36,755 nucleotides of DNA, from NCBI GenBank assembly GCA_034440375.1, contig JAWXBZ010000252.1:1-36755 (forward strand), written 5' to 3'. Under the pieces are notes generated by a model. That model worked only from the letters and a program-made list of their open reading frames with translations. It did not search any database and was not told the origin of the DNA. The translations under genes and the position numbers were made by a program. The stretch comes from Candidatus Eiseniibacteriota bacterium (GTDB taxonomy: Bacteria > Eisenbacteria > RBG-16-71-46 > JABDJR01 > JAWXBZ01). This document shows, piece by piece, positions 27,439 through 36,755 of this stretch. Each line of letters opens with the position of its first letter. The stretch's first letter is position 1.

Positions 27439-29814
27439 ATGACGACCGAGCCGACTCTCCCCCTGCCCCTCAAGGGCCATGATTTCGACGCCTTCCTCGG
27501 CCGCATCGAGGCCGAACGTCACTATGCCGGTCAGATCGTGAACGTAACCCGGCTACCGGAGCGTCCAGCCCGCCATGCCGATCCCCGTGAACCGCTTTCG
27601 GTACCTCTCCGGAGCGCCCTGTCGGCCCGGGGAATCGATCGCCTCTATGCCCACCAGGCGGAAGCCATCAACCTGGCCCGGGAGGGAGAGCATGTGGTGG
27701 TGGTCACCGGAACCGCCAGCGGAAAGACACTGGCCTACAACCTCCCGGTCGTCGAGAGGTTGATGGCGGAGCCCGATTCCACCGCTCTCTATCTCTTCCC
27801 GACCAAGGCGCTGGCCCAGGACCAGCTCAAGGGCCTGACCCGCTTTCTGGAGACGGCTTCTGCCGCGCTGCCACCGGAGGACGATCTGATCACGTCGATC
27901 CGGCCGGGCGTTTACGACGGCGACACCTCCCAGTCGGCGCGTCGAAAGATTCGTGATACGAGCCGCCTTGTTCTCTCGAACCCGGACATGCTCCACCGGG
28001 CGCTGCTCCCCTATCACGGTCGCTGGGCTCGCTTTCTCTCGCAGCTCCGTTACGTCATCATCGATGAGATCCATTCCTACCGCGGCATCTTCGGTTCCAA
28101 CGTGGCCAATGTCATCCGTCGGCTGCGCCGGGTGGCCGCGCACCACGGTGCGGATCCGCAGTTTCTCTCCTCGTCGGCCACGATCAGAAACCCGGTCGAG
28201 CTGGCGGAGGCCCTGACTGGTGTCGGCACGCGTGCGGTCACCGACGACGGCTCTCCCCGCGGCCCGCGCTGGTTTGTCACCTGGAATCCGCCGCACCTCG
28301 ATGCGGCGCGCGTGGAGCGACGGAGCGGCAACGTCGAGGCGATGGAAATTCTCCTGCGACTGGTCCGCGAGGGGGTGGCGACCATCGTCTTCTGCAAGGC
28401 CCGCGTTGTAGCCGAACTCATATACAAATACGCCCACGACGAGTTGCGCCGAAAGGATGGTGCGCTGGCCGGTCGCCTGACTCCATATCGCAGCGGTTAC
28501 CTGCCAGGTGAGCGGCGAGCCATCGAGAAGCGCCTTTTCGATGGTGAGTTGCTCGGCGTGGTGTCGACCAACGCCCTCGAACTCGGGATCGACATCGGCA
28601 GTCTCGACGCCTCCATCGTGGTCGGCTTCCCGGGCACCTTTGCTTCGGTCTGGCAGCAGTCGGGACGGGCCGGGCGGGGCCACGACGGCAGCCTGACAAT
28701 CTTTGTGGCCTACGACGACCCCATCGACCAGTACCTGGCCCGGCATCCGGACTACTTTCTAGGGCAGGCACCGGAAGCCGCGGCCATCGATCCGGGCAAT
28801 CCGTACATCCTGGCCGGACATCTCGCCTGCGCCGCATTTGAACTGCCGCTCGGACCGGAAGACGAAGAAATCTTCGGCTGCATGATGGGCGGCGTGCGCG
28901 AGGCGCTGACCGCCGAAGACCGGCTGACCCACCTTGGCGGCCTTCACTACTGGGGTTCCACCGACTTTCCGGCCCAGCGAGTCAACCTCAGAACCATCTC
29001 GGACGACACGTACTCGATCGTCGATGCGACCAACGGGGACAAAGTGATCGGCATGGTGGACGCCATCAGCGCACCGGAACTGGTCTACCCGGAAGCCATC
29101 TACCTGCACGAGGGTGAAACCTGGTTCGTCAAGAAATTGGATATGGACCAAAAAGTGGCCTACGTCGAACCCGTCAGCGTCGACTACTACACGCAGCCGG
29201 TTCTCGATACCTCGCTGCGCGTCACCGAGCGCCGGATCGAACGCTGGAGCGGAGCGGAGCGCCTCACGCTGAACCGGGCCACCGTCACCTGGGCCACCAC
29301 CATGTTCAAGAAGATCCAGTTCGGGTCTACCGATTCGATCGGGTACAAGAACCTGGCCCTGCCGCCACAGCATCTCGACACAGTGGCCCTTGGCTGGAGT
29401 CCCTCCGAGGAAGTGCGGAATGCCGTGCGCGCGGACGGCAGAAAGCCGGCCGAGGGACTCTCCGGCATCCGTAATCTCATGATCACCGTGCTGCCGCTCT
29501 ACAGCATGTGCGATCGATCCGACATCGGCGGCGTGATCGACTCGTCCAACTTCGGGCACCCGACCCTCTTTCTGTACGACCGCTTCGCGGGGGGGGTTGG
29601 TTTTACGGAACGGGGTTACACCATCTGGGAAGAGATGGTGCTCGAAGCGCTTCGGCTCCTCGAAGATTGTCCCTGTCAGGACGGATGCCCCTCCTGCGTC
29701 GGCCTGCCGATCCTCCGTCCGGCGCAGCACCAGGATCCGGACGTGATGAACGGCTTTCCGATACCGGACAAGGGAGCTGCCCGGGTCATGCTGCGTGGCC
29801 TTATCACGCCGTGA
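27439..29814 (+). CDS. mrfA: DEAD/DEAH-box helicase with DUF1998 (MrfA/YprA/SftH, Hrq1-like)
   Basis: LYAHQAEA, TGTASGKT, FPTKALAQDQ, NPDMLH, DEIH, SSATI.NP, TNALELGIDIG, Q.SGRAGR, and C…CPCQDGCPSC metal site. Confidence 0.93.
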   Translation: MTTEPTLPLPLKGHDFDAFLGRIEAERHYAGQIVNVTRLPERPARHADPREPLSVPLRSALSARGIDRLYAHQAEAINLAREGEHVVVVTGTASGKTLAYNLPVVERLMAEPDSTALYLFPTKALAQDQLKGLTRFLETASAALPPEDDLITSIRPGVYDGDTSQSARRKIRDTSRLVLSNPDMLHRALLPYHGRWARFLSQLRYVIIDEIHSYRGIFGSNVANVIRRLRRVAAHHGADPQFLSSSATIRNPVELAEALTGVGTRAVTDDGSPRGPRWFVTWNPPHLDAARVERRSGNVEAMEILLRLVREGVATIVFCKARVVAELIYKYAHDELRRKDGALAGRLTPYRSGYLPGERRAIEKRLFDGELLGVVSTNALELGIDIGSLDASIVVGFPGTFASVWQQSGRAGRGHDGSLTIFVAYDDPIDQYLARHPDYFLGQAPEAAAIDPGNPYILAGHLACAAFELPLGPEDEEIFGCMMGGVREALTAEDRLTHLGGLHYWGSTDFPAQRVNLRTISDDTYSIVDATNGDKVIGMVDAISAPELVYPEAIYLHEGETWFVKKLDMDQKVAYVEPVSVDYYTQPVLDTSLRVTERRIERWSGAERLTLNRATVTWATTMFKKIQFGSTDSIGYKNLALPPQHLDTVALGWSPSEEVRNAVRADGRKPAEGLSGIRNLMITVLPLYSMCDRSDIGGVIDSSNFGHPTLFLYDRFAGGVGFTERGYTIWEEMVLEALRLLEDCPCQDGCPSCVGLPILRPAQHQDPDVMNGFPIPDKGAARVMLRGLITP

Positions 29815-30680
29815 GCACCAATCTCAATGAGCGGCTCGGCCGCCTGGCGAGGGGTCCAAGAACCCCCGCGCCGCCCCCCGAAGTGGGAACGATCCGAAAC
29901 TCCCGGCGACGAAAGGCGCCGCCGGGCCTGGAAACGGTGCTTCCCGGTGAGGAAATTCGAACCGCTCGCGGAGTCTGCTGGCTTCATGAGCGCCCACTCG
30001 AGCGGTGGCCCGGCATCGAGGATGGGTTGGCCGGCAGGCTGGCCCAGGTGTTGGCGTCGCCGGCACCGGACGATCTCGAGCGGGACTGCGGTTGGGCCGG
30101 TTGGAGAAGCCGGGGGGTCGATTCAGGGCTGTTCCTGGATCTGGAAACAACCGGGTTGGCCGCCACACCGGTCTTCCTGTGCGGCCTCCTGTCCTGCTCC
30201 GGGGGGGAAATGACCTTTCGGCTCCTCCTGGCGCGGGACTATTCGGAGGAGGCCGCCCTGCTCGAAGCCATTTCAGGCGAAATCACCCGACGGCCAGTCG
30301 TGGTCAGTTTCAACGGCAAATCGTATGACATCCCCTTCCTGAAGGAGCGCACGGGGCGCCTGCGAACCGCATCATGCCGTCCCGACGCCCATTTCGACCT
30401 GCTCCACCCCGCCCGCCGACGCTGGTCGGACCGGCTCCCGGATTGCCGCTTGAAGACCCTCGAATGGGCCATTCTGGGGCGCCGGCGAGGTGGTGACATC
30501 GATGGTGCCGAGATTCCAGCCATCTACCATCGGTTCGTCCGGGACCGGGACCCCCGCCCCCTGTTAAGAGTGATGGCGCACAATCTCCACGATCTGTACA
30601 CTCTGGCTGAGTTGACCGTGCGGACTGCCCAGACCCGGGTGGCCCCGTTGGGTACCCCCGGAGAAAAGCCAAACATTTGA
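29811..30680 (+). CDS. mrfB: RNase H-like (RNase_H_2, YprB/MrfB-type) exonuclease
   Basis: Start moved to GTG 29811 (GTGA overlap with the helicase stop). FLDLETTG, SFNGKSYDIPFL, HFDLLH, RLKTLE..ILG, HNLHDL. No C-terminal TPR region. Confidence 0.88.
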   Translation: MSTNLNERLGRLARGPRTPAPPPEVGTIRNSRRRKAPPGLETVLPGEEIRTARGVCWLHERPLERWPGIEDGLAGRLAQVLASPAPDDLERDCGWAGWRSRGVDSGLFLDLETTGLAATPVFLCGLLSCSGGEMTFRLLLARDYSEEAALLEAISGEITRRPVVVSFNGKSYDIPFLKERTGRLRTASCRPDAHFDLLHPARRRWSDRLPDCRLKTLEWAILGRRRGGDIDGAEIPAIYHRFVRDRDPRPLLRVMAHNLHDLYTLAELTVRTAQTRVAPLGTPGEKPNI

Positions 30681-30805
30681 CTGGCTTGGACTGGCGGAGT
30701 GACGATATCGGTCTTATCCTGATAAAGGGTTCGTTCCCAGCACGGGCCTGAGTGTGCCTACCCTGTTTTTCGTTTCAGTACTGGCAGACCGCGAAGGAGG
30801 AATTC

Positions 30806-31501
30806 ATGAAGCTTGCGCACATCACCGCTGGTTTGCTCGCCCTCGGGGCGATCGGGTTCGTGGCCGGACCAACCTCGGCCGCCGTCAACCCAAACAAGCC
30901 AAAGATCCTGTTGCACGTCAAGATGGTCACCACGAAGGCTCCATGTAGCCTCCCCATTACACTCGGCGACAATTGTGCCAACACAGTCCCAAAAGGGGAT
31001 CTCTATCCTCTCATGTCCTACCACATGCAACTGATCGTCGACCGTGGGGACAGTATTTCAATGGATGACGGCTTCGCCGGCGTTCAGTTCGGCATTCAGT
31101 ATCCGGAGGGCGCCGGGGGGATCGGTGTCTTCGGCTGGACGCTCTGCGCGACACTGGAGTTCGTCTCGCCCACTCCTGTCTGGCCGGCGTCGGGAGGCGG
31201 TAACCTGATTACCTGGAATGCCGTAACGTCGTGCCAGCGCACCCGCCTCGGATGTGCGGGCTTTTTTTACATGGGTGCCTATGGCCCCTCGACGTTTCGC
31301 GTGACCAACCGCCCTGTGGACAACATCGCAAAGGTAGCTGACTGCGGTTCCGTTGAAACCATCGTCCCGGAGGGTGCGCTGGGTTTCGCCGCCTTCTCCT
31401 CCGGCGCCGTCACCGAGGGGTGCAACCCCTGCCTGGTCGATTGCGCCCCGGTGGCCGTAGCGCCGACAACATGGTCGAAGGTGAAGAACCTCCTGAATTG
31501 A
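30806..31501 (+). CDS. Secreted Cys-rich hypothetical protein, paralog 1 (ends CNPCLVDC…PTTWSKVKNLLN)
   Basis: RBS AAGGAGG before ATG 30806; signal peptide; aligns by eye with the next two genes. Confidence 0.88.
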   Translation: MKLAHITAGLLALGAIGFVAGPTSAAVNPNKPKILLHVKMVTTKAPCSLPITLGDNCANTVPKGDLYPLMSYHMQLIVDRGDSISMDDGFAGVQFGIQYPEGAGGIGVFGWTLCATLEFVSPTPVWPASGGGNLITWNAVTSCQRTRLGCAGFFYMGAYGPSTFRVTNRPVDNIAKVADCGSVETIVPEGALGFAAFSSGAVTEGCNPCLVDCAPVAVAPTTWSKVKNLLN

Positions 31502-31772
31502 GGAATTCAACCACCTTCTTCACTGGCAGGGACGTTTGTGTCGGAATGAGTGAGTTTTGGCCGCACCAGGCATGGTCAGTCAGGGTTGCCGCGGAGTAAT
31601 TGTCACCGGTGGAGTGGATCCAGACGAACGCTAAACATTCGCATCGAAAAGATGCTTACCGGATATGACATTCTTCGGTCTGACCTAGCCGAAAAACCCC
31701 CGATGGTGTATTTATATATCGGGACGATGACAATCGAAATCCTGCCAACAGCGTACGAGTGAAGGAGGAGTG

Positions 31773-32507
31773 ATGAAATTAGTTAAGATCGCCGTGGGAG
31801 TTCTGGCGCTGGGCGCGCTGGTTCTGACCCCGGTTAATTCCGAAGCCCAGATCAGCATGAAGCCAAAGATCCTGCTTCACATCAAGGCCATCACAACTAA
31901 GCTCCCGTGCGCGGTCCCTGCCACGTTGGGTGGCCTTTGCGCAAACGCGGACAACACGGGCGACTTGGGCCAAGGCTATCACATGCAGGTCATCGTCGAC
32001 CTGGGCGACAGCGTCGCAGGGGAGATTGCGATCGACCCGCTGAACGGACTGGCCGGTGTCCAGTTCGGCGTCACCTATCCCGGACAGTACAATGAGACGG
32101 GTACCGGTTCCATGATCAACGTCTTCGCCTGGACCCTGTGCGCCACTCTGGAATTCAAATCACCACCCCCGACCGAATGGCCCGGCCCCGGAAGCGGCAA
32201 CCTGATCACCTGGGACGCCGTCAACCTGTGTCAGAGGGGCCGCCTCTCGACCGCCGGCTTCTTCTACTTGACCGCCTACTCGGCAGGCACGTTTCAACTC
32301 ATCCCCCGCCCGGTCGACGGGATCGCCAAATTTGCGGATTGTGGCTCCTTCGAAACGAACCTGACCCCGGGGGAACTCGGTTCAGCCCAATTCTCCGCGG
32401 GTGGCGGGGGCATGGCGTTTGCCTGCAATCCCTGTATGGTGAACTGCAGTGGAGTCCCCGTCCGTCCTACTACCTGGAGCGCGATAAAGGCTCTGACCGG
32501 TCACTAG
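31773..32507 (+). CDS. Secreted Cys-rich hypothetical protein, paralog 2 (ends CNPCMVNC…PTTWSAIKALTGH)
   Basis: RBS AAGGAGG; signal peptide; shares KPKILLH, AGVQFG, WTLCATLEF, GNLITW, AGFFY, RPVD.IAK.ADCGS with paralog 1. Confidence 0.9.
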   Translation: MKLVKIAVGVLALGALVLTPVNSEAQISMKPKILLHIKAITTKLPCAVPATLGGLCANADNTGDLGQGYHMQVIVDLGDSVAGEIAIDPLNGLAGVQFGVTYPGQYNETGTGSMINVFAWTLCATLEFKSPPPTEWPGPGSGNLITWDAVNLCQRGRLSTAGFFYLTAYSAGTFQLIPRPVDGIAKFADCGSFETNLTPGELGSAQFSAGGGGMAFACNPCMVNCSGVPVRPTTWSAIKALTGH

Positions 32508-32559
32508 GAGCCGACCTTCGTCGACTATTGGTCACCAGATCCGATTCGTCTTCGACAGC

Positions 32560-32615
32560 AACCCCGAGGTCCGGCCCGCGAGAATTCGGCGGCTCAGACC
32601 TCGGGGTTTCGCTTT
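32560..32615 (+). terminator. Probable terminator hairpin
   Basis: AACCCCGAGGTC / GACCTCGGGGTT 12-bp stem followed by TCGCTTT. Confidence 0.7.
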
Positions 32616-32623
32616 GTCATGGG

Positions 32624-32652
32624 TTGACGTGACGTCTGCTGGACAGTAGCGT
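32624..32652 (+). promoter_or_regulatory. sigma70-type promoter for paralog 3 and the PLP enzyme
   Basis: TTGACG, 17-bp spacer, TAGCGT. Confidence 0.5.
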
Positions 32653-32704
32653 TTTCGAGTCACGCCGCTCATGTTGTCCATATTGCCGCGGGGGTCTTCA
32701 TTTC

Positions 32705-33430
32705 ATGCCGAAACGAGTCCACGCAGGCGGCGGCTGCCCCCGGCGCATGAATCAACATCAAAAGCACTTGCCCAATTGGAACAGCTTTCTGCTTGCCGTT
32801 TTGACTCTGACCAGTCTGGCGGGGGGTGCCTTTGCCGCAGAACCGAAGTTGGTTCTCCATGCCAGTCGGGCGAGCCTGTCGGAGCCTTGCCAGTCGGGAA
32901 TTGCCCGATGTCAGGAAGCCCTTGTGAGCGGAAGCCTCTATTCACCGAGCGGTGCCGGCACCTATTTCGTTTACCTGATGGCCAGCCAGTTCGATCCGGC
33001 TGAAGGCATTCGTTCGATTCAGGCCGGAATCGACTATGACGCCGTCACGCTGTCCGGTGTTGATATCTTCTCCTGGAACCTTTGCGCCGATTCCCAGGAG
33101 CCAGGGCCCGGCTGGTATCAGGTACCGAAGTCTGTCAATCGCCTCATCTGGAATGTCGAACAGTGCCCATCCGACACGTTGGTGGTCGGGGGCTATTTTT
33201 ACATGACCTGCTACACCCCCTCCTTCCTGACCATCAGTCCGTTCGGGAGTGATTCGGCTGCCATACAGACCTGTATCGGCAACACGGTGACGCTGCCGCC
33301 GACGGCTCTCGGGTACGTGGCATTCGGATCCATACCGGGCTGCAACCCTTGCCTCGCACCCTGTAATACGGTTTCCATACGGCCGACCAGCTGGAGCGCC
33401 CTCAAGAGCCTGGTCGGACAAGGACCATGA
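32705..33430 (+). CDS. Secreted Cys-rich hypothetical protein, divergent paralog 3 (ends CNPCLAPC…PTSWSALKSLVGQGP)
   Basis: Signal peptide ending AFA; EPKLVLH, IQAGIDY, WNLCAD, GGYFY. Start is 32705 or 32747. Confidence 0.85.
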   Translation: MPKRVHAGGGCPRRMNQHQKHLPNWNSFLLAVLTLTSLAGGAFAAEPKLVLHASRASLSEPCQSGIARCQEALVSGSLYSPSGAGTYFVYLMASQFDPAEGIRSIQAGIDYDAVTLSGVDIFSWNLCADSQEPGPGWYQVPKSVNRLIWNVEQCPSDTLVVGGYFYMTCYTPSFLTISPFGSDSAAIQTCIGNTVTLPPTALGYVAFGSIPGCNPCLAPCNTVSIRPTSWSALKSLVGQGP

Positions 33431-34653
33431 CGGGTCTGGATGGAGTCGATCCGGCGCGACCTGGTGAATCCGGCCCTGCTGACATCCGGCCTGATACGCT
33501 GGCCGTTCACGGCGCCGACTTTCACGATACGCACGATCGGGCCCACGTGCCCCCCATCCACCTGACGACGGTCTTTCAATTCGAGTCGGTGGAAGACATG
33601 GCAGCGACCTTCCGGGGCGAGCGCCCCGGCTGGATCTACACACGTTACGGAAACCCGACGCTTGCTCTCGTGGAACGCCACCTGGCCGCACTTGAAGGGG
33701 CGGAGGCCGCGCTGGCCGTTTCGTCGGGCATGGCGGCCATCAGTACGCTTATCCTTTCCGAGTTATCGGCAGGTGATCACCTGGTCGCGGCAGCGGACCT
33801 GTACGGAGGCACGCGAAACCTGCTCGACGGTATCGTGCGACGGATGGGAATAACGACAAGCTGGGCCGCCGCCGATGACCCTGCCGCCTTTCGGAATGCC
33901 ATTCGCCCAGGGACGAAGGCCATTTTCGTGGAGACCCCAACCAATCCGACGCTCCGAATTGCCGACCTGACCGCCATCGTTGCGGCGGGGCGGGAAACCT
34001 CAGTGCCGGTCTTCGTCGACAACACCTTCGCCACACCCATCCTGCAAAGGCCGCTCGACTTCGGCGCCACGGCAGTGATCCACTCGGCCACCAAGGCGCT
34101 GGCCGGCCACGATGATGTCACGGCCGGCGTCATCGTCGGCACCCGGGCGCTGGTGGATCGCTGCCGCGAAACGATGAAATGGTTGGGTGGCTGCCTCGAT
34201 CCACACGCCGCCTGGTTGCTCGAGCGCGGCATCAAGACCCTGGGACTCCGCATTGCGCGTCAGAGCCAGAATGCGCTGGTGCTGGCCCGCTGGCTCGAAC
34301 AGCACCCCGCCGTTCGATCCGTCAACTACCCGGGACTGGCCACCCACTCGGCCCACGATCTGGCCGCGCGCCAGATGCGTGGCTTTGGAGGGATCCTGGC
34401 GTTCGATCTTGCCGGCGGTGAACCGGCGGTGCGGCACTGGGCGGAAGGCCTGTCGTTGATTCGGCTGGCGCCGACACTGGGGGGCGTCGAGACGATTGCC
34501 CTGATTCCAGCTGTCTCTTCGCACATCCGCCTGTCTTCGGACGAACGGCTGGCGGCCGGCATATCCGACGGTACCATCCGCATCTCCTGCGGCATCGAGG
34601 ACCCGGCCGATTTGATCAAGGATCTCGATCGGGCTCTCGGTCGTCACGACTGA
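33427..34653 (+). CDS. Cys/Met metabolism PLP-dependent enzyme (cystathionine gamma-lyase/synthase or methionine gamma-lyase family)
   Basis: YTRYGNPT, SSGMAAI, LYGGT, ETPTNP, VDNTFATP, HSATK..AGH (PLP lysine), LGGVET, IRISCGIED. Confidence 0.93.
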   Translation: MTGLDGVDPARPGESGPADIRPDTLAVHGADFHDTHDRAHVPPIHLTTVFQFESVEDMAATFRGERPGWIYTRYGNPTLALVERHLAALEGAEAALAVSSGMAAISTLILSELSAGDHLVAAADLYGGTRNLLDGIVRRMGITTSWAAADDPAAFRNAIRPGTKAIFVETPTNPTLRIADLTAIVAAGRETSVPVFVDNTFATPILQRPLDFGATAVIHSATKALAGHDDVTAGVIVGTRALVDRCRETMKWLGGCLDPHAAWLLERGIKTLGLRIARQSQNALVLARWLEQHPAVRSVNYPGLATHSAHDLAARQMRGFGGILAFDLAGGEPAVRHWAEGLSLIRLAPTLGGVETIALIPAVSSHIRLSSDERLAAGISDGTIRISCGIEDPADLIKDLDRALGRHD

Positions 34654-34771
34654 CGAGTTCTCGTCAAATTTTGTCGGGTTGTCATTGGGCCAGTGGATAC
34701 CGGCGAATCATAACCTCGAAATTCATTTGAGTTAGAGCGACACTTTCTTGACCCCGGCTGCTTTCCAGAGA

Positions 34772-34787
34772 TGGCATGACCATTGCA
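34772..34787 (+). promoter_or_regulatory. sigma54 (-24/-12) promoter
   Basis: TGGCATGACCATTGCA matches TGGCACG-N4-TTGCW with one mismatch and exact GG/GC spacing; predicted +1 near G34798. Confidence 0.75.
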
Positions 34788-34797
34788 ATTCATCATT

Positions 34798-35152
34798 GTC
34801 GAAGGTGGGAATGGGGGCTCACCTGGAGGCGGGCACGCGACCGCTTCCAATCCGGCTCGGCCCGGGCGCGATCCCGGGCCGAGCCGAGGTTTTGATGGCC
34901 GGACGACAACGCGCGCGTTTCACCGTGGCGCCCCGCGCACGACAACAAGACGGCAATCTCGGCAAGACCATGAATTTCCGATTGGTCGGGGTGGTCGAAG
35001 AGCACCTAGGGGACGGGGGGTGCTCTTCGCGTGGGCGGATGACAGCCGATGGGAACCACGCCCGGCCAATCGGAACCTGTTCTGGCGAACCGGCCTGCCG
35101 CGGCTCCCCTTCGAGGAGCCCCGCGCTCCCCGGCCGGTTCGCCTCTTCTATT
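34798..35152 (+). ncRNA. Candidate ~355-nt highly structured non-coding RNA of unrecognised family
   Basis: Six consecutive helical domains, several with plus-strand G-U pairs, running from the predicted +1 to a terminal 12-bp stem followed by TCTTCTATT. No credible ORF with an RBS. Confidence 0.65.
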
Positions 35153-35196
35153 GAATCAGGTGACGAGCCCACCCGCCGCGACGGGCGTAAGTCCCT

Positions 35197-36755
35197 TCAT
35201 CGCTCCTCGCCCGGCGCGTAGAGCGCGTCTATCAACGCGCGATATCGGGCTTCCAACTCGCGCCGCTTCACCTTGAGCGTCGGCGTCAAGTCGCCATCGG
35301 CCACGGTCAGTTCGCGGTCGATCAGACCGATTCGCTTGATCGTCTCGAACGGCGCCAGATCCTTGTTGACCTGCTCGACACGCGTCATCAGAAAGGCCCT
35401 GACGCGGGGATCGCGACTCAGGGCAATCGGATCGACGGCTCCGCCCGCGGACGATCCAGTCACGCCGTTCTCCCGCGCCCATCTTGCCACCTGGGTGAAG
35501 TCCGGCGCCAAGAGGGCCACGCAGTAAGGGCGCCGATCACCGAACACCACCACCTCCGAAATGTAGGGATCCTGCTTGAGTCGTCCCTCGATCGGTTGTG
35601 GCGCCACGTTCTTGCCACCGGCGGTAACAATCAGGTCTTTTTTTCGATCGGTGATGGTGAGAAAACCGTCCGGATCAAGCCGGCCGATGTCGCCGGTGTG
35701 GAACCACCCGCCGCCCATGACGGCCGCCGTCCCCTCCGGGTCGTTGGCATAGCCGGCCATGACGCCGGCGCCCCGAACCAGGATCTCGCCGTCCGGAGCA
35801 GTTGTGACCTCGACTCCCGGGATCGGCTGGCCTACGGTACCGATGCGAATGTTGTCGAGTCGGTTGACACTGATGACAGGCGACGTCTCCGTCAGCCCGT
35901 ACCCCTCCAGGATCAAGACTCCGGCCGCATGGAAGAAGATGGCGATTTCGGCGGACAATGGCGCTCCTCCCGACACCATGAAGCGGATACGGCCGCCAAG
36001 TCGCGCCTTGATTTTGGAGAACACCAGCATCGACGCGACGCGGGCCTGCCACGCCAGCATCAACGGCACGGGACGATGCGCCAGGAGTCGTTCACTTCGA
36101 CGGCGCCCGACCCCCACGGCCCAATGGAAAAGTGCCCGACGCAGCGGCGGCGCCTCGCGCACTGTTTCGTGCACGCGGGCGTGCATCTTTTCGTAAAGAC
36201 GCGGAACGCTGAATAATACCGTCGGCCGGACCTCGACAAGATTGTCGGAAACCGTCTCCATTGACCCGGCATACGCGATCGTGACGCCGGCATCCATCAT
36301 CGTGTAGTGCCCCGCCATCCGCTCGAAAATGTGACAAAGGGGCAGAAACGACAGGCAGCGGTCGGTCGGCCCAACCGACAAGACTGCCCGTACGGCATGG
36401 ACGTTTGACACGATGTTCCCGTGTGTCAACATGACGCCCTTGGGCCGCCCGGTGGTGCCGGAGGTGTAGATGATGCTGGCCAGGTTCGTCGCGGCCACGG
36501 CGTCGCGGCGGCGTTCGGCGGCGTTCGGTTCACGGAGGCGTCGCGCGCGTCCCAATTCCCGGATCCCGTCGAAGGTGTGAACCGGCTTCGGGTCACGGTT
36601 TCCTTCCTCGGTTCCGGCATCGAACTGGACGACTTGGAGGTCTGCCCGCAGACGAGGGCGAATGTCGGCGACGACGGCCATCTGATGGGCATCGGAAACG
36701 AAAACAACGCGCGCCCCGGAATCGGTCAAGATGAATTCGATCTGCGGCGGCGTCA
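35197..36755 (-). CDS. Long-chain fatty-acid--CoA ligase (AMP-binding, FadD/ACSL type), 5' end outside the window
   Basis: IIYTSGTTGRPKGVMLTHGN, LSFLPLCHIFER, EGYGLTET, FHTGDIG, ITDRKKDLI.TAGGKNVAP, LTPTLKVKR. The frame stays open to the window edge. Confidence 0.95.
   Translation of the reverse strand, partial: TPPQIEFILTDSGARVVFVSDAHQMAVVADIRPRLRADLQVVQFDAGTEEGNRDPKPVHTFDGIRELGRARRLREPNAAERRRDAVAATNLASIIYTSGTTGRPKGVMLTHGNIVSNVHAVRAVLSVGPTDRCLSFLPLCHIFERMAGHYTMMDAGVTIAYAGSMETVSDNLVEVRPTVLFSVPRLYEKMHARVHETVREAPPLRRALFHWAVGVGRRRSERLLAHRPVPLMLAWQARVASMLVFSKIKARLGGRIRFMVSGGAPLSAEIAIFFHAAGVLILEGYGLTETSPVISVNRLDNIRIGTVGQPIPGVEVTTAPDGEILVRGAGVMAGYANDPEGTAAVMGGGWFHTGDIGRLDPDGFLTITDRKKDLIVTAGGKNVAPQPIEGRLKQDPYISEVVVFGDRRPYCVALLAPDFTQVARWARENGVTGSSAGGAVDPIALSRDPRVRAFLMTRVEQVNKDLAPFETIKRIGLIDRELTVADGDLTPTLKVKRRELEARYRALIDALYAPGEER

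Follow-up and report, generated by a model that had tools for sequence, protein, structure and literature searches.

Several small regulatory RNAs (sRNAs) that depend on sigma-54 for their transcription invite comparison with the locus treated here, a structured element at positions 34798 to 35152 on the forward strand of the window, by which we mean the whole 36,755-nt stretch of contig JAWXBZ010000252.1 from a genome of Candidatus Eisenbacteria. Pxr of the Myxococcales is reported as an intergenic sRNA, found in a single order, that apparently possesses a sigma-54 promoter of its own and forms several stem-loops; conservation extends to some of its stems and not to others, and its gene neighbourhood is kept only in part (PMC5568312, PMC5684412). 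GlmY and GlmZ of the Enterobacteriaceae are described as sigma-54-dependent sRNAs of about 150-200 nt, of which GlmY titrates the protein RapZ by binding it, not by base pairing (PMC3045617, PMC4152352, PMC7073468). The transcription of the Qrr sRNAs of Vibrio reportedly needs sigma-54 plus an enhancer-binding protein (PMC10162802).

The Eisenbacteria element has a defined structure on one strand, is present as a single copy, is conserved throughout one order together with its promoter, and matches no known RNA family. We consider the proposal that it represents a previously undescribed sRNA family of this order to be well supported, with strong comparative evidence for its core structure and for its promoter. 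Among the papers listed in the literature searched, none dealt with regulatory RNAs of Eisenbacteria; "Eisenbacteria" and "noncoding RNA" were mentioned together once, in passing. The host assembly comprises 3.96 Mb in 264 contigs with a G+C content of 64%, and the element is located in a gap of 543 nt (34654-35196) that separates two convergent genes.

Conservation and covariation of the three-way junction

A first-pass annotation of the window, made from the letters alone, had described the element as a multi-domain RNA of about 355 nt. Its helices H1, H2, H3, H5 and H6 were all reproduced, at the same positions, in the minimum-free-energy (MFE) fold of the plus strand. This fold has an energy of -193.9 kcal/mol, compared with -165.1 +/- 7.1 kcal/mol for 100 dinucleotide shuffles (z -4.07), none of which equalled it. 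The first domain to be considered is H5 (34976-35075, plus strand), a three-way junction closed by a long stem (34976-34990/35061-35075, continued by 34991-34995/35055-35059) and carrying an arm of 11-12 bp (34996-35007/35018-35029) and a weak arm near 35030-35051. It was found in the MFE fold and by two covariance models, one built from the window and its closest relative (R1) and one built from 13 sequences (R2).

The closest relative (G001) belongs to the same family as the window but to a different genus. When the element was compared by BLAST with 60 relatives, true similarity was detected in G001 only, within H2-H3 (85%) and H5 (87%), and four of the H5 pairs had undergone two-sided compensatory changes between these two sequences. 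Model R1 yielded exactly one match in each of 8 out of 151 genomes of the class, all of them in the window's order and distributed over both genomes of the window's family f1 (the window counted) and six of the eight of family f2. On a sample of the phylum, R2 likewise matched 8 of 151 genomes, members of the order only, and none of the 142 genomes outside the order; in a run over 40 genomes with laxer filters (E<=1), nine genomes were positive, with one match each, and the 30 genomes from 13 other families were all negative. Taking R1 and R2 together, the genomes of the class or phylum outside the order that gave no match number 141-142. Hence, nine of the ten species genomes of the order possess the RNA in one copy each. 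The sole exception, G004, is an assembly of 440 contigs in which the contig breaks off 1,255 nt from the syntenic anchor gene, toward the side expected to hold the RNA, and its missing match is therefore probably an assembly gap. One genome flagged as unpublished (G054) was counted among those without the RNA. When the search with R2 was conducted with its filters off on seven syntenic regions of other families, it returned noise only (at most 17 bits).

Searches with a degenerate pattern of the core extended this picture to 185,579 species genomes, among which 17 stretches were found and no record from Gemmatimonadota. Nine of these stretches derive from Eisenbacteria or from untitled metagenome-assembled genomes, and eight of the nine also match the models; the eight from other phyla fail both models. 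A corresponding scan of metagenome contigs gave 33 stretches, 28 of which were unmatched and five of which are true homologues: one is near-identical to the window, one is of the type found in the window's family, and three are of the f2 type.

The alignment of the 13 sequences documents extensive covariation. Pairing is possible in 96.6% of 468 cells, as opposed to 40-57% when the partners are slid by one to three columns, and two-sided changes are present in 24 of the 36 pairs (closing stem, 15 of 18; arm P2, 9 of 12). The covariation of H5 is strong. None of 500 shuffles reached the observed values, a result whose significance is overstated because the 13 sequences are related to one another, and the alignment in question (A5) was fitted to the model. 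An alignment generated by MAFFT without the model and folded by RNAalifold recovered the inner closing stem and both arms and, of the outer stem, only a few end pairs.

The junction consists of a closing stem (P1a/P1b), an arm P2 with an invariant loop (YUA-NN-GGACGGGG), and a short invariant arm P3; 0-1 and 3 nucleotides are unpaired at the junction itself, whose purine-rich consensus reads MGUGGGC...GCCGRUGGGAR. In the 13 sequences, P1a and P2 vary freely, and no change occurs in P3 (GGC/GCC plus wobble pairs) or in part of P1b; P3 consequently shows no covariation. The most conserved bases cluster in and around the junction, and the loop of P2 holds two freely variable positions. Judged from these comparisons, the three-way junction of about 100 nt (34976-35075) is the evolutionarily conserved unit of the element. 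The copy of G006 (L041:6893-6974) has kept promoter, leader and core, but most of the 3' strand of its closing stem lacks pairing (R1 23.5 bits, R2 56.7 bits); either this copy is decaying or the assembly is in error here.

The element is not a member of a described RNA family. As the first-pass annotation had expected, a search of the whole window against Rfam 15 at gathering thresholds gave no match, and at E<=10 only noise was obtained, the best scores amounting to 11-20 bits against thresholds of 35-80 bits and covering single hairpins. ARAGORN reported nothing in the element, for which the first-pass annotation had noted no hallmarks of tmRNA, RNase P RNA, signal recognition particle (SRP) RNA or tRNA. 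A housekeeping RNA in disguise was rejected on the ground that 6S RNA (contig C180, 53 bits) and SRP RNA (contig C235, 58.9 bits) are encoded elsewhere in the same genome; a partial tmRNA is truncated where contig C35 ends, and RNase P RNA, which was not found in this incomplete assembly, is present at another locus in five out of five relatives that also carry the junction RNA. Structured RNA genes seemingly tend to lie at assembly breaks, as suggested by the missing RNase P RNA, the truncated tmRNA and the junction copy of G001, which is cut by a contig end.

A dispersed repeat of the REP or MITE type was likewise rejected, since the 401-nt region around the element has one full copy in its own genome and the models give one match per related genome at E<=1. 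Two open reading frames (ORFs) cross the element on the plus strand (34748-35221 and 34783-35154); both are spurious and are broken in G001, where indels of 1, 1, 50 and 3 nt and an insertion of more than 100 nt between H5 and H6 separate the two sequences. A protein-coding gene was rejected because these indels break the ORFs and the substitutions are compensatory for pairing. The first-pass annotation had named five observations that would count against its reading; four of them were looked for, and none overturned it.

Promoter, strand and family-specific domains

A perfect consensus element of a sigma-54-type promoter (-24 GG/-12 GC), TGGCATGACCATTGCA, lies at 34772-34787 on the plus strand, and the predicted transcription start at 34798 follows from the usual spacing of about 11 nt after the -12 GC. 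Nowhere else does the window match TGGCAY-N5-TTGCW (0.04 matches would be expected), and the entire 3.96-Mb genome contains ten strict sigma-54 consensus matches, this one included, in agreement with the promoter originally proposed for this RNA. An equivalent element (GGCAY-N5-xTGC) precedes the junction by 24-309 nt, on the strand of the RNA, in all 13 loci with upstream sequence, the G001 locus having been left out of this count since it is cut by a contig end; the promoter consensus over these loci is yGGCACg-N4-yTGCA. The search expression was widened after the sites had been seen, and the same widened expression has a background of 286 matches per 7.93 Mb, that is 0.0125 per 350-nt window. 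The leaders between promoter and junction are unalignable across genera and share no 5-7-mer above a shuffled null, so that the promoter is conserved against a diverged background. The gene for sigma-54, rpoN, was detected in ten out of ten genomes of the order (PF04552 over cut-off), and a scan for sigma-70 promoters and terminators found no sigma-70-like promoter at the element. A short sequence present in the window and in a second locus of its type (L054), TTGAGTTAG, was considered as an activator site and rejected; it occurs six times in the genome, close to the expectation from composition. At position 8315 of contig C177 of the window's own assembly (G000), a near-identical sigma-54-like site and flank, CTCTGGCACAGAGCCTGCAATAGTCTG, is present on both strands, which points to this contig being an inverted duplication that the assembly may have produced.

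The strand from which the RNA would be read cannot be assigned by thermodynamics alone, since the minus strand folds with a comparable energy (z -4.94). The first-pass annotation had argued from G-U pairs for the plus strand, and its argument is borne out: such pairs are located in H1, H2 and the closing stem of H5 on the plus strand, and in the 13-sequence alignment 61 of the 468 pair cells are G-U or U-G. The covariance model scores the window at 118.6 bits in forward and 24.7 bits in reverse orientation; the forward scores are 118-120 bits and the reverse scores 24-26 bits, a gap of about 95 bits. The G-U pairs and this score gap identify the plus strand as the folded one, which is also the strand of the promoter.

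At the 3' side of the junction, a stretch of 16 nt is pyrimidine-rich, with a mean T content of about 32% as compared with 18% genome-wide, and clear U-runs (UUUUUU/UUUU) follow the junction in G005, G007 and G001. Where such U-runs are present, the closing stem of 18-20 bp is probably an intrinsic terminator as well. The tail is weaker in the window and in L054, where the family-specific hairpin H6 (35084-35095/35132-35143, with an inner helix and followed by TCTTCTATT) comes next; together with its UCUUCUAUU tail (35084-35152), H6 is the likely 3' terminator in family f1; the U-rich tail is found on the plus strand only. Two of the metagenome relatives have leaders of only about 15 and 33 nt, from which a minimal RNA of roughly 125-150 nt, consisting of the junction plus its tail, can be deduced.

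The remaining domains on the plus strand are of more limited distribution. In the MFE fold of the window they comprise hairpin H1 (34803-34809/34818-34824), which is kept in L054; hairpin H2 (34825-34832/34841-34848), which is kept in both L054 and G001; and H3 (34853-34866/34873-34886, extending to 34893), a perfect, GC-rich 14-bp hairpin plus GGUUUU that was also picked up by the terminator scan; H1 and H2 are specific to family f1. Among the three distinct f1-type sequences that were compared (window, L054 and G001), H1-H3 and H6 are conserved; their changes are all one-sided, none two-sided, and fit G-U pairs of the plus strand. In H2 these changes include G-U/A-U/G-C and C-G/U-G exchanges, and in H6 a change from C-G to U-G (L054, G001); one such replacement, C35090T, was recorded in run X16. 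The stem of H3 is invariant in all three sequences, and its U-run is kept in L054 and missing in G001. H3 plus GGTTTT scored as intrinsic-terminator-like inside the RNA, and a short isoform of about 95 nt or an attenuation point at this position is thus possible. In a related contig examined in run X8, 19 of the 20 listed substitutions fall within 34907-34968 and none within 34806-34906. We suggest that H1-H3 and H6 are probably real, lineage-specific additions of the window's family.

The segment between H3 and the junction (34894-34975) is a variable linker that is unalignable among the window, L054 and G001. It contains H4 (34911-34938), which the first-pass annotation had listed among the helices and which exists as a weak hairpin in the MFE fold; no conservation was found for it across these three sequences. 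The earlier view of a multi-domain RNA of about 355 nt thus stands as far as the fold is concerned and needs to be narrowed with respect to conservation, as the conserved unit is limited to the junction of about 100 nt and the rest is lineage-specific or, in the case of H4, not conserved. The long form is one family's elaboration of the junction RNA.

How the RNA might act

Since the element is a single-copy, order-wide and strand-specific structure with a sigma-54-type promoter and a terminator-like end, and is independent of its neighbours, we infer that it encodes a regulatory RNA transcribed on its own, under the control of sigma-54 and an activator, and acting in trans. According to the mechanism that we propose, RNA polymerase with sigma-54 and an enhancer-binding protein would initiate transcription near 34798, and the transcript would pass through the lineage-specific hairpins H1-H3 and the variable linker before entering the conserved junction of about 100 nt. 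In most relatives, the long closing stem and its U/C-rich tail would also terminate the transcript, a role that would be taken over in the window's family by H6 with its U-rich tail. The junction would serve as the functional module, presenting the apical loop (UA-NN-GGACGGGG), the short arm (GGC/GCC) and the purine-rich junction sequence (GUGGGC...GCCGRUGGGA) in a fixed geometry, and a protein partner would recognize this surface in trans, leading to sequestration or scaffolding of the type known from GlmY, CrcZ and 6S RNA.

We favour such a recognition of the folded surface by a protein partner over a simple antisense seed, tentatively and with less than even confidence. The preference is based on the fact that the invariance reaches into helices (P3 and part of P1b) and concentrates at the junction, while the loop has two free positions. 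A folded surface is also favoured over a linear seed because relatives with short leaders (15-33 nt) keep the junction alone and because Hfq (PF17209) was found in none of the ten genomes of the order by a search that detected it in control genomes. The absence of Hfq from these ten genomes also led us to reject an Hfq-dependent sRNA. CsrA is present in one of the ten (G001 only, at G001:C18:29408-29566), and a CsrA sponge of the CsrB/RsmZ type, an idea prompted by the AUGGA sequence of the loop, was rejected on account of this distribution and the presence of just two conserved GGA sites. Y RNA (YrlA) was rejected as well, as the own genome has no match to TROVE (Ro) and both ARAGORN and Rfam were negative.

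Several observations weigh against the picture of a sigma-54-driven RNA with a protein partner. Transcription, both transcript ends and any processing are all deduced from the sequence; the sequencing runs in which the stretch was listed are recorded as microbial-mat and sediment metagenomes, and no RNA run was found among them. No gene for an enhancer-binding protein was found within about 6 kb of the RNA in any locus, and no upstream activator site is common to the order, footprints in pairwise comparisons being confined to genera. The window and L054 have no good U-run directly after the junction. No candidate protein partner emerged, in that Hfq, CsrA and Ro were ruled out rather than found. 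The invariant 8-nt stretch GGACGGGG in an open loop would fit a base-pairing seed equally well, and most characterized sigma-54-dependent sRNAs act by base pairing. The relatedness of the 13 sequences, the fitting of their alignment to the model and the widening of the promoter expression, all noted above, belong to the same side of the balance.

A classical base-pairing sRNA, encoded by the same gene and driven by the same promoter, is accordingly the alternative that survives best, and we regard it as possible, if doubtful. In such an RNA, the GGACGGGG loop of P2, or the A/C-rich linker of the long forms, would pair with C-rich sites in mRNAs, and the junction would act as a scaffold and terminator in the manner of the stem-loops of Qrr or Pxr. 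The invariant loop stretch is open in every fold, and the order from promoter through hairpins to a terminator-like 3' structure is typical of trans-acting sRNAs; in Pxr, as reported, there is a precedent for an order-restricted, sigma-54-promoted stem-loop sRNA (PMC5568312). The data that oppose it all come from weak tests. Complements of the extended loop are no more frequent in the ten genomes than in a control: for a 14-nt loop complement with up to two mismatches, the RNA gene itself was the only site at zero mismatches, and the counts equalled those of the reversed pattern; complements of 11 nt occur at 12 places outside the RNA gene in the own genome. Duplexes computed by RNAduplex with the start regions of six neighbouring genes were no better than those with 3000 random windows, a test of little power at 64% GC, where the G-rich probe averages -17 kcal/mol against any sequence of the genome. 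Furthermore, the invariant helices P3 and P1b would not be needed for a seed on a scaffold, and Hfq is missing from the ten genomes.

It is improbable, in our estimation, that the junction is itself a sensor or catalyst, either as an sRNA-borne aptamer that binds an ion or small molecule or as a small ribozyme. An invariant purine-rich core, a fixed geometry of three helices and conserved loop nucleotides are typical of such RNAs, and the small number of unpaired junction nucleotides (0-1 and 3) would be in keeping with this. There is, however, no Rfam riboswitch or ribozyme match even at E<=10, the 18-20-bp closing stem is far too stable for switching, no gene recurs 3' of the RNA on its strand, and inspection by eye revealed nothing resembling the core motifs of a hammerhead. 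The long closing stem and the variable or convergent downstream genes also led us to reject membership among riboswitches and cis-acting leaders. An action in cis, in which the RNA would end the upstream operon as an elaborate terminator or 3'-UTR element or regulate the downstream gene as a 5' leader, is rather more improbable still. The RNA always lies on the same strand as, and downstream of, a block containing a helicase gene and an RNase_H_2 gene, and in G008 a histidine-kinase gene starts on the same strand about 180 nt 3' of it; these arrangements are countered by the sigma-54 promoter directly upstream of the RNA in 13 of 13 loci, by the terminator-like hairpin (34651-34666) that the upstream gene of the window has for itself, and by the variability of the immediate flanking genes, with a convergent downstream gene in all four f1-type loci. 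A DNA-level element (palindromes for protein binding, a recombination site or a repeated sequence) or GC-rich DNA that folds by chance would account for the minus-strand energy (z -4.94) and for the near-palindromic character of H3 and parts of H5, and it is scarcely credible in view of compensatory changes that keep pairing and not sequence, G-U pairs on one strand only with a strand gap of about 95 bits, a single copy per genome, and a promoter and U-rich tail conserved on the same strand.

A wider class can also be envisioned, which we consider unlikely and put forward as speculation: sigma-54-promoted three-way-junction riboregulators in phyla of the FCB group that are poor in Hfq and CsrA, with the rigid junction, its invariant G-rich loop and its purine-rich core docking onto a dedicated RNA-binding protein or onto a component of the sigma-54/enhancer-binding pathway. 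Should the latter be true, it would amount to RNA-level feedback on sigma-54 regulons.

Genomic neighbourhood and comparison with described RNAs

The gene upstream of the RNA in the window (33427-34653, plus strand) encodes a pyridoxal phosphate (PLP) enzyme of Cys/Met metabolism (PF01053, E 1.4e-128), which serves as a synteny anchor and is not part of the RNA; the same enzyme family is also found upstream of the RNA in L053, L079 and G002. The convergent downstream neighbour (35197-36729, minus strand) encodes an AMP-binding acyl-CoA ligase (PF00501/PF23562) and is likewise separate from the RNA. Upstream of the RNA and on its strand lies a conserved block consisting of genes for an MrfA-like DEAD helicase and an RNase_H_2 exonuclease-like protein and of ORFs of about 225-273 amino acids without a Pfam match, which is joined by the PLP-enzyme gene in some genomes only. 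Six genomes have the RNase_H_2 gene 2.9-5.7 kb from the RNA, and in a seventh the two are 28 kb apart. The genes 3' of the RNA vary between loci: they are convergent in the four f1-type loci and differ among the f2 loci.

In the window, the MrfA-like helicase (domains DEAD, MZB and WHD_HRQ1) and the RNase_H_2-superfamily gene occupy positions 27439-30677, and the RNase_H_2 anchor gene is single-copy in all 31 Eisenbacteria genomes searched. Three tandem ORFs of 249, 245 and 241 amino acids without a Pfam match follow at 30752-33430; two of them (31770-32507 and 32705-33430) have N-termini resembling signal peptides and a common Cys-rich tail, CNPC..C..V..RPT(T/S)WSA(I/L)K(A/S)L. At the equivalent syntenic place in G002, G006, G007 and G008 there are likewise ORFs of about this size that match no Pfam family. 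The tandem ORFs with the Cys-rich tail may represent an unnamed family of secreted proteins or a sorting signal.

In three genomes from two other Eisenbacteria families, the RNase_H_2 gene is followed after 0.6-3 kb by a strict sigma-54 promoter of the same orientation (G014, L128:3652; G013, L130 minus strand, reverse-complement position 1193; G020, L138:1328), and each promoter precedes strongly structured sequence without an Rfam match. The candidate in G014 consists of about 130 nt of hairpins with a terminator-like stem plus UUUCC at its end and has no BLAST homologue in 201 class genomes beyond short GC-rich matches; in G013 and G020, a leader of about 320 nt precedes an ORF that starts with MPANLTP. 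None of the three structured sequences showed homology to the junction RNA by R2. The position of these promoters downstream of RNase_H_2 may indicate that the locus predates the recognizable RNA.

The work supplies an RNA gene with its promoter type, its structural core and a ready covariance model, so that it can be searched for in metatranscriptomes, and it adds an sRNA whose conserved effector module, a three-way junction, would double as the 3' end of the transcript. The family-specific expansion, from roughly 125 to 355 nt, illustrates domain accretion in such RNAs. Since the hosts appear to lack Hfq and, in nine of ten genomes, CsrA, the partner of this RNA could belong to a novel type of RNA-binding factor. 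The reach of these findings is one order of uncultured bacteria, represented by ten species genomes and five metagenome contigs, and we regard their immediate impact as moderate.

When the Eisenbacteria RNA is placed beside the known systems, the general housekeeping RNAs (6S RNA, RNase P RNA, SRP RNA and tmRNA) resemble it in being single-copy, structured and conserved, and the form present in the window is close to RNase P RNA in size; they are set apart from it by their location, as 6S RNA, SRP RNA and a partial tmRNA of the same genome are encoded at other loci and RNase P RNA lies elsewhere in the five relatives. Qrr RNAs are Hfq-dependent, base-pairing sRNAs with four stem-loops; the Eisenbacteria RNA bears no similarity to them, and Hfq was found in none of the ten genomes of its order. 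GlmY and GlmZ have an unrelated fold and belong to another taxon, their families are not matched in Rfam by the RNA studied here, and a protein partner, established for GlmY, would in the present case be a deduction. Functionally, such sRNAs with sigma-54 promoters are the nearest precedents. In contrast to the Eisenbacteria RNA, Pxr is reported to be made up of three consecutive stem-loops, is about 108 nt long and lies beside the response-regulator gene nla19; the Eisenbacteria RNA is built around a three-way junction, has no adjacent gene for an enhancer-binding protein, matches no Rfam family and belongs to a different phylum. What the two have in common, by the published account of Pxr, is an intergenic position, an apparent sigma-54 promoter of their own, an architecture of stem-loops, restriction to a single order, and a mixture of conserved and variable stems.

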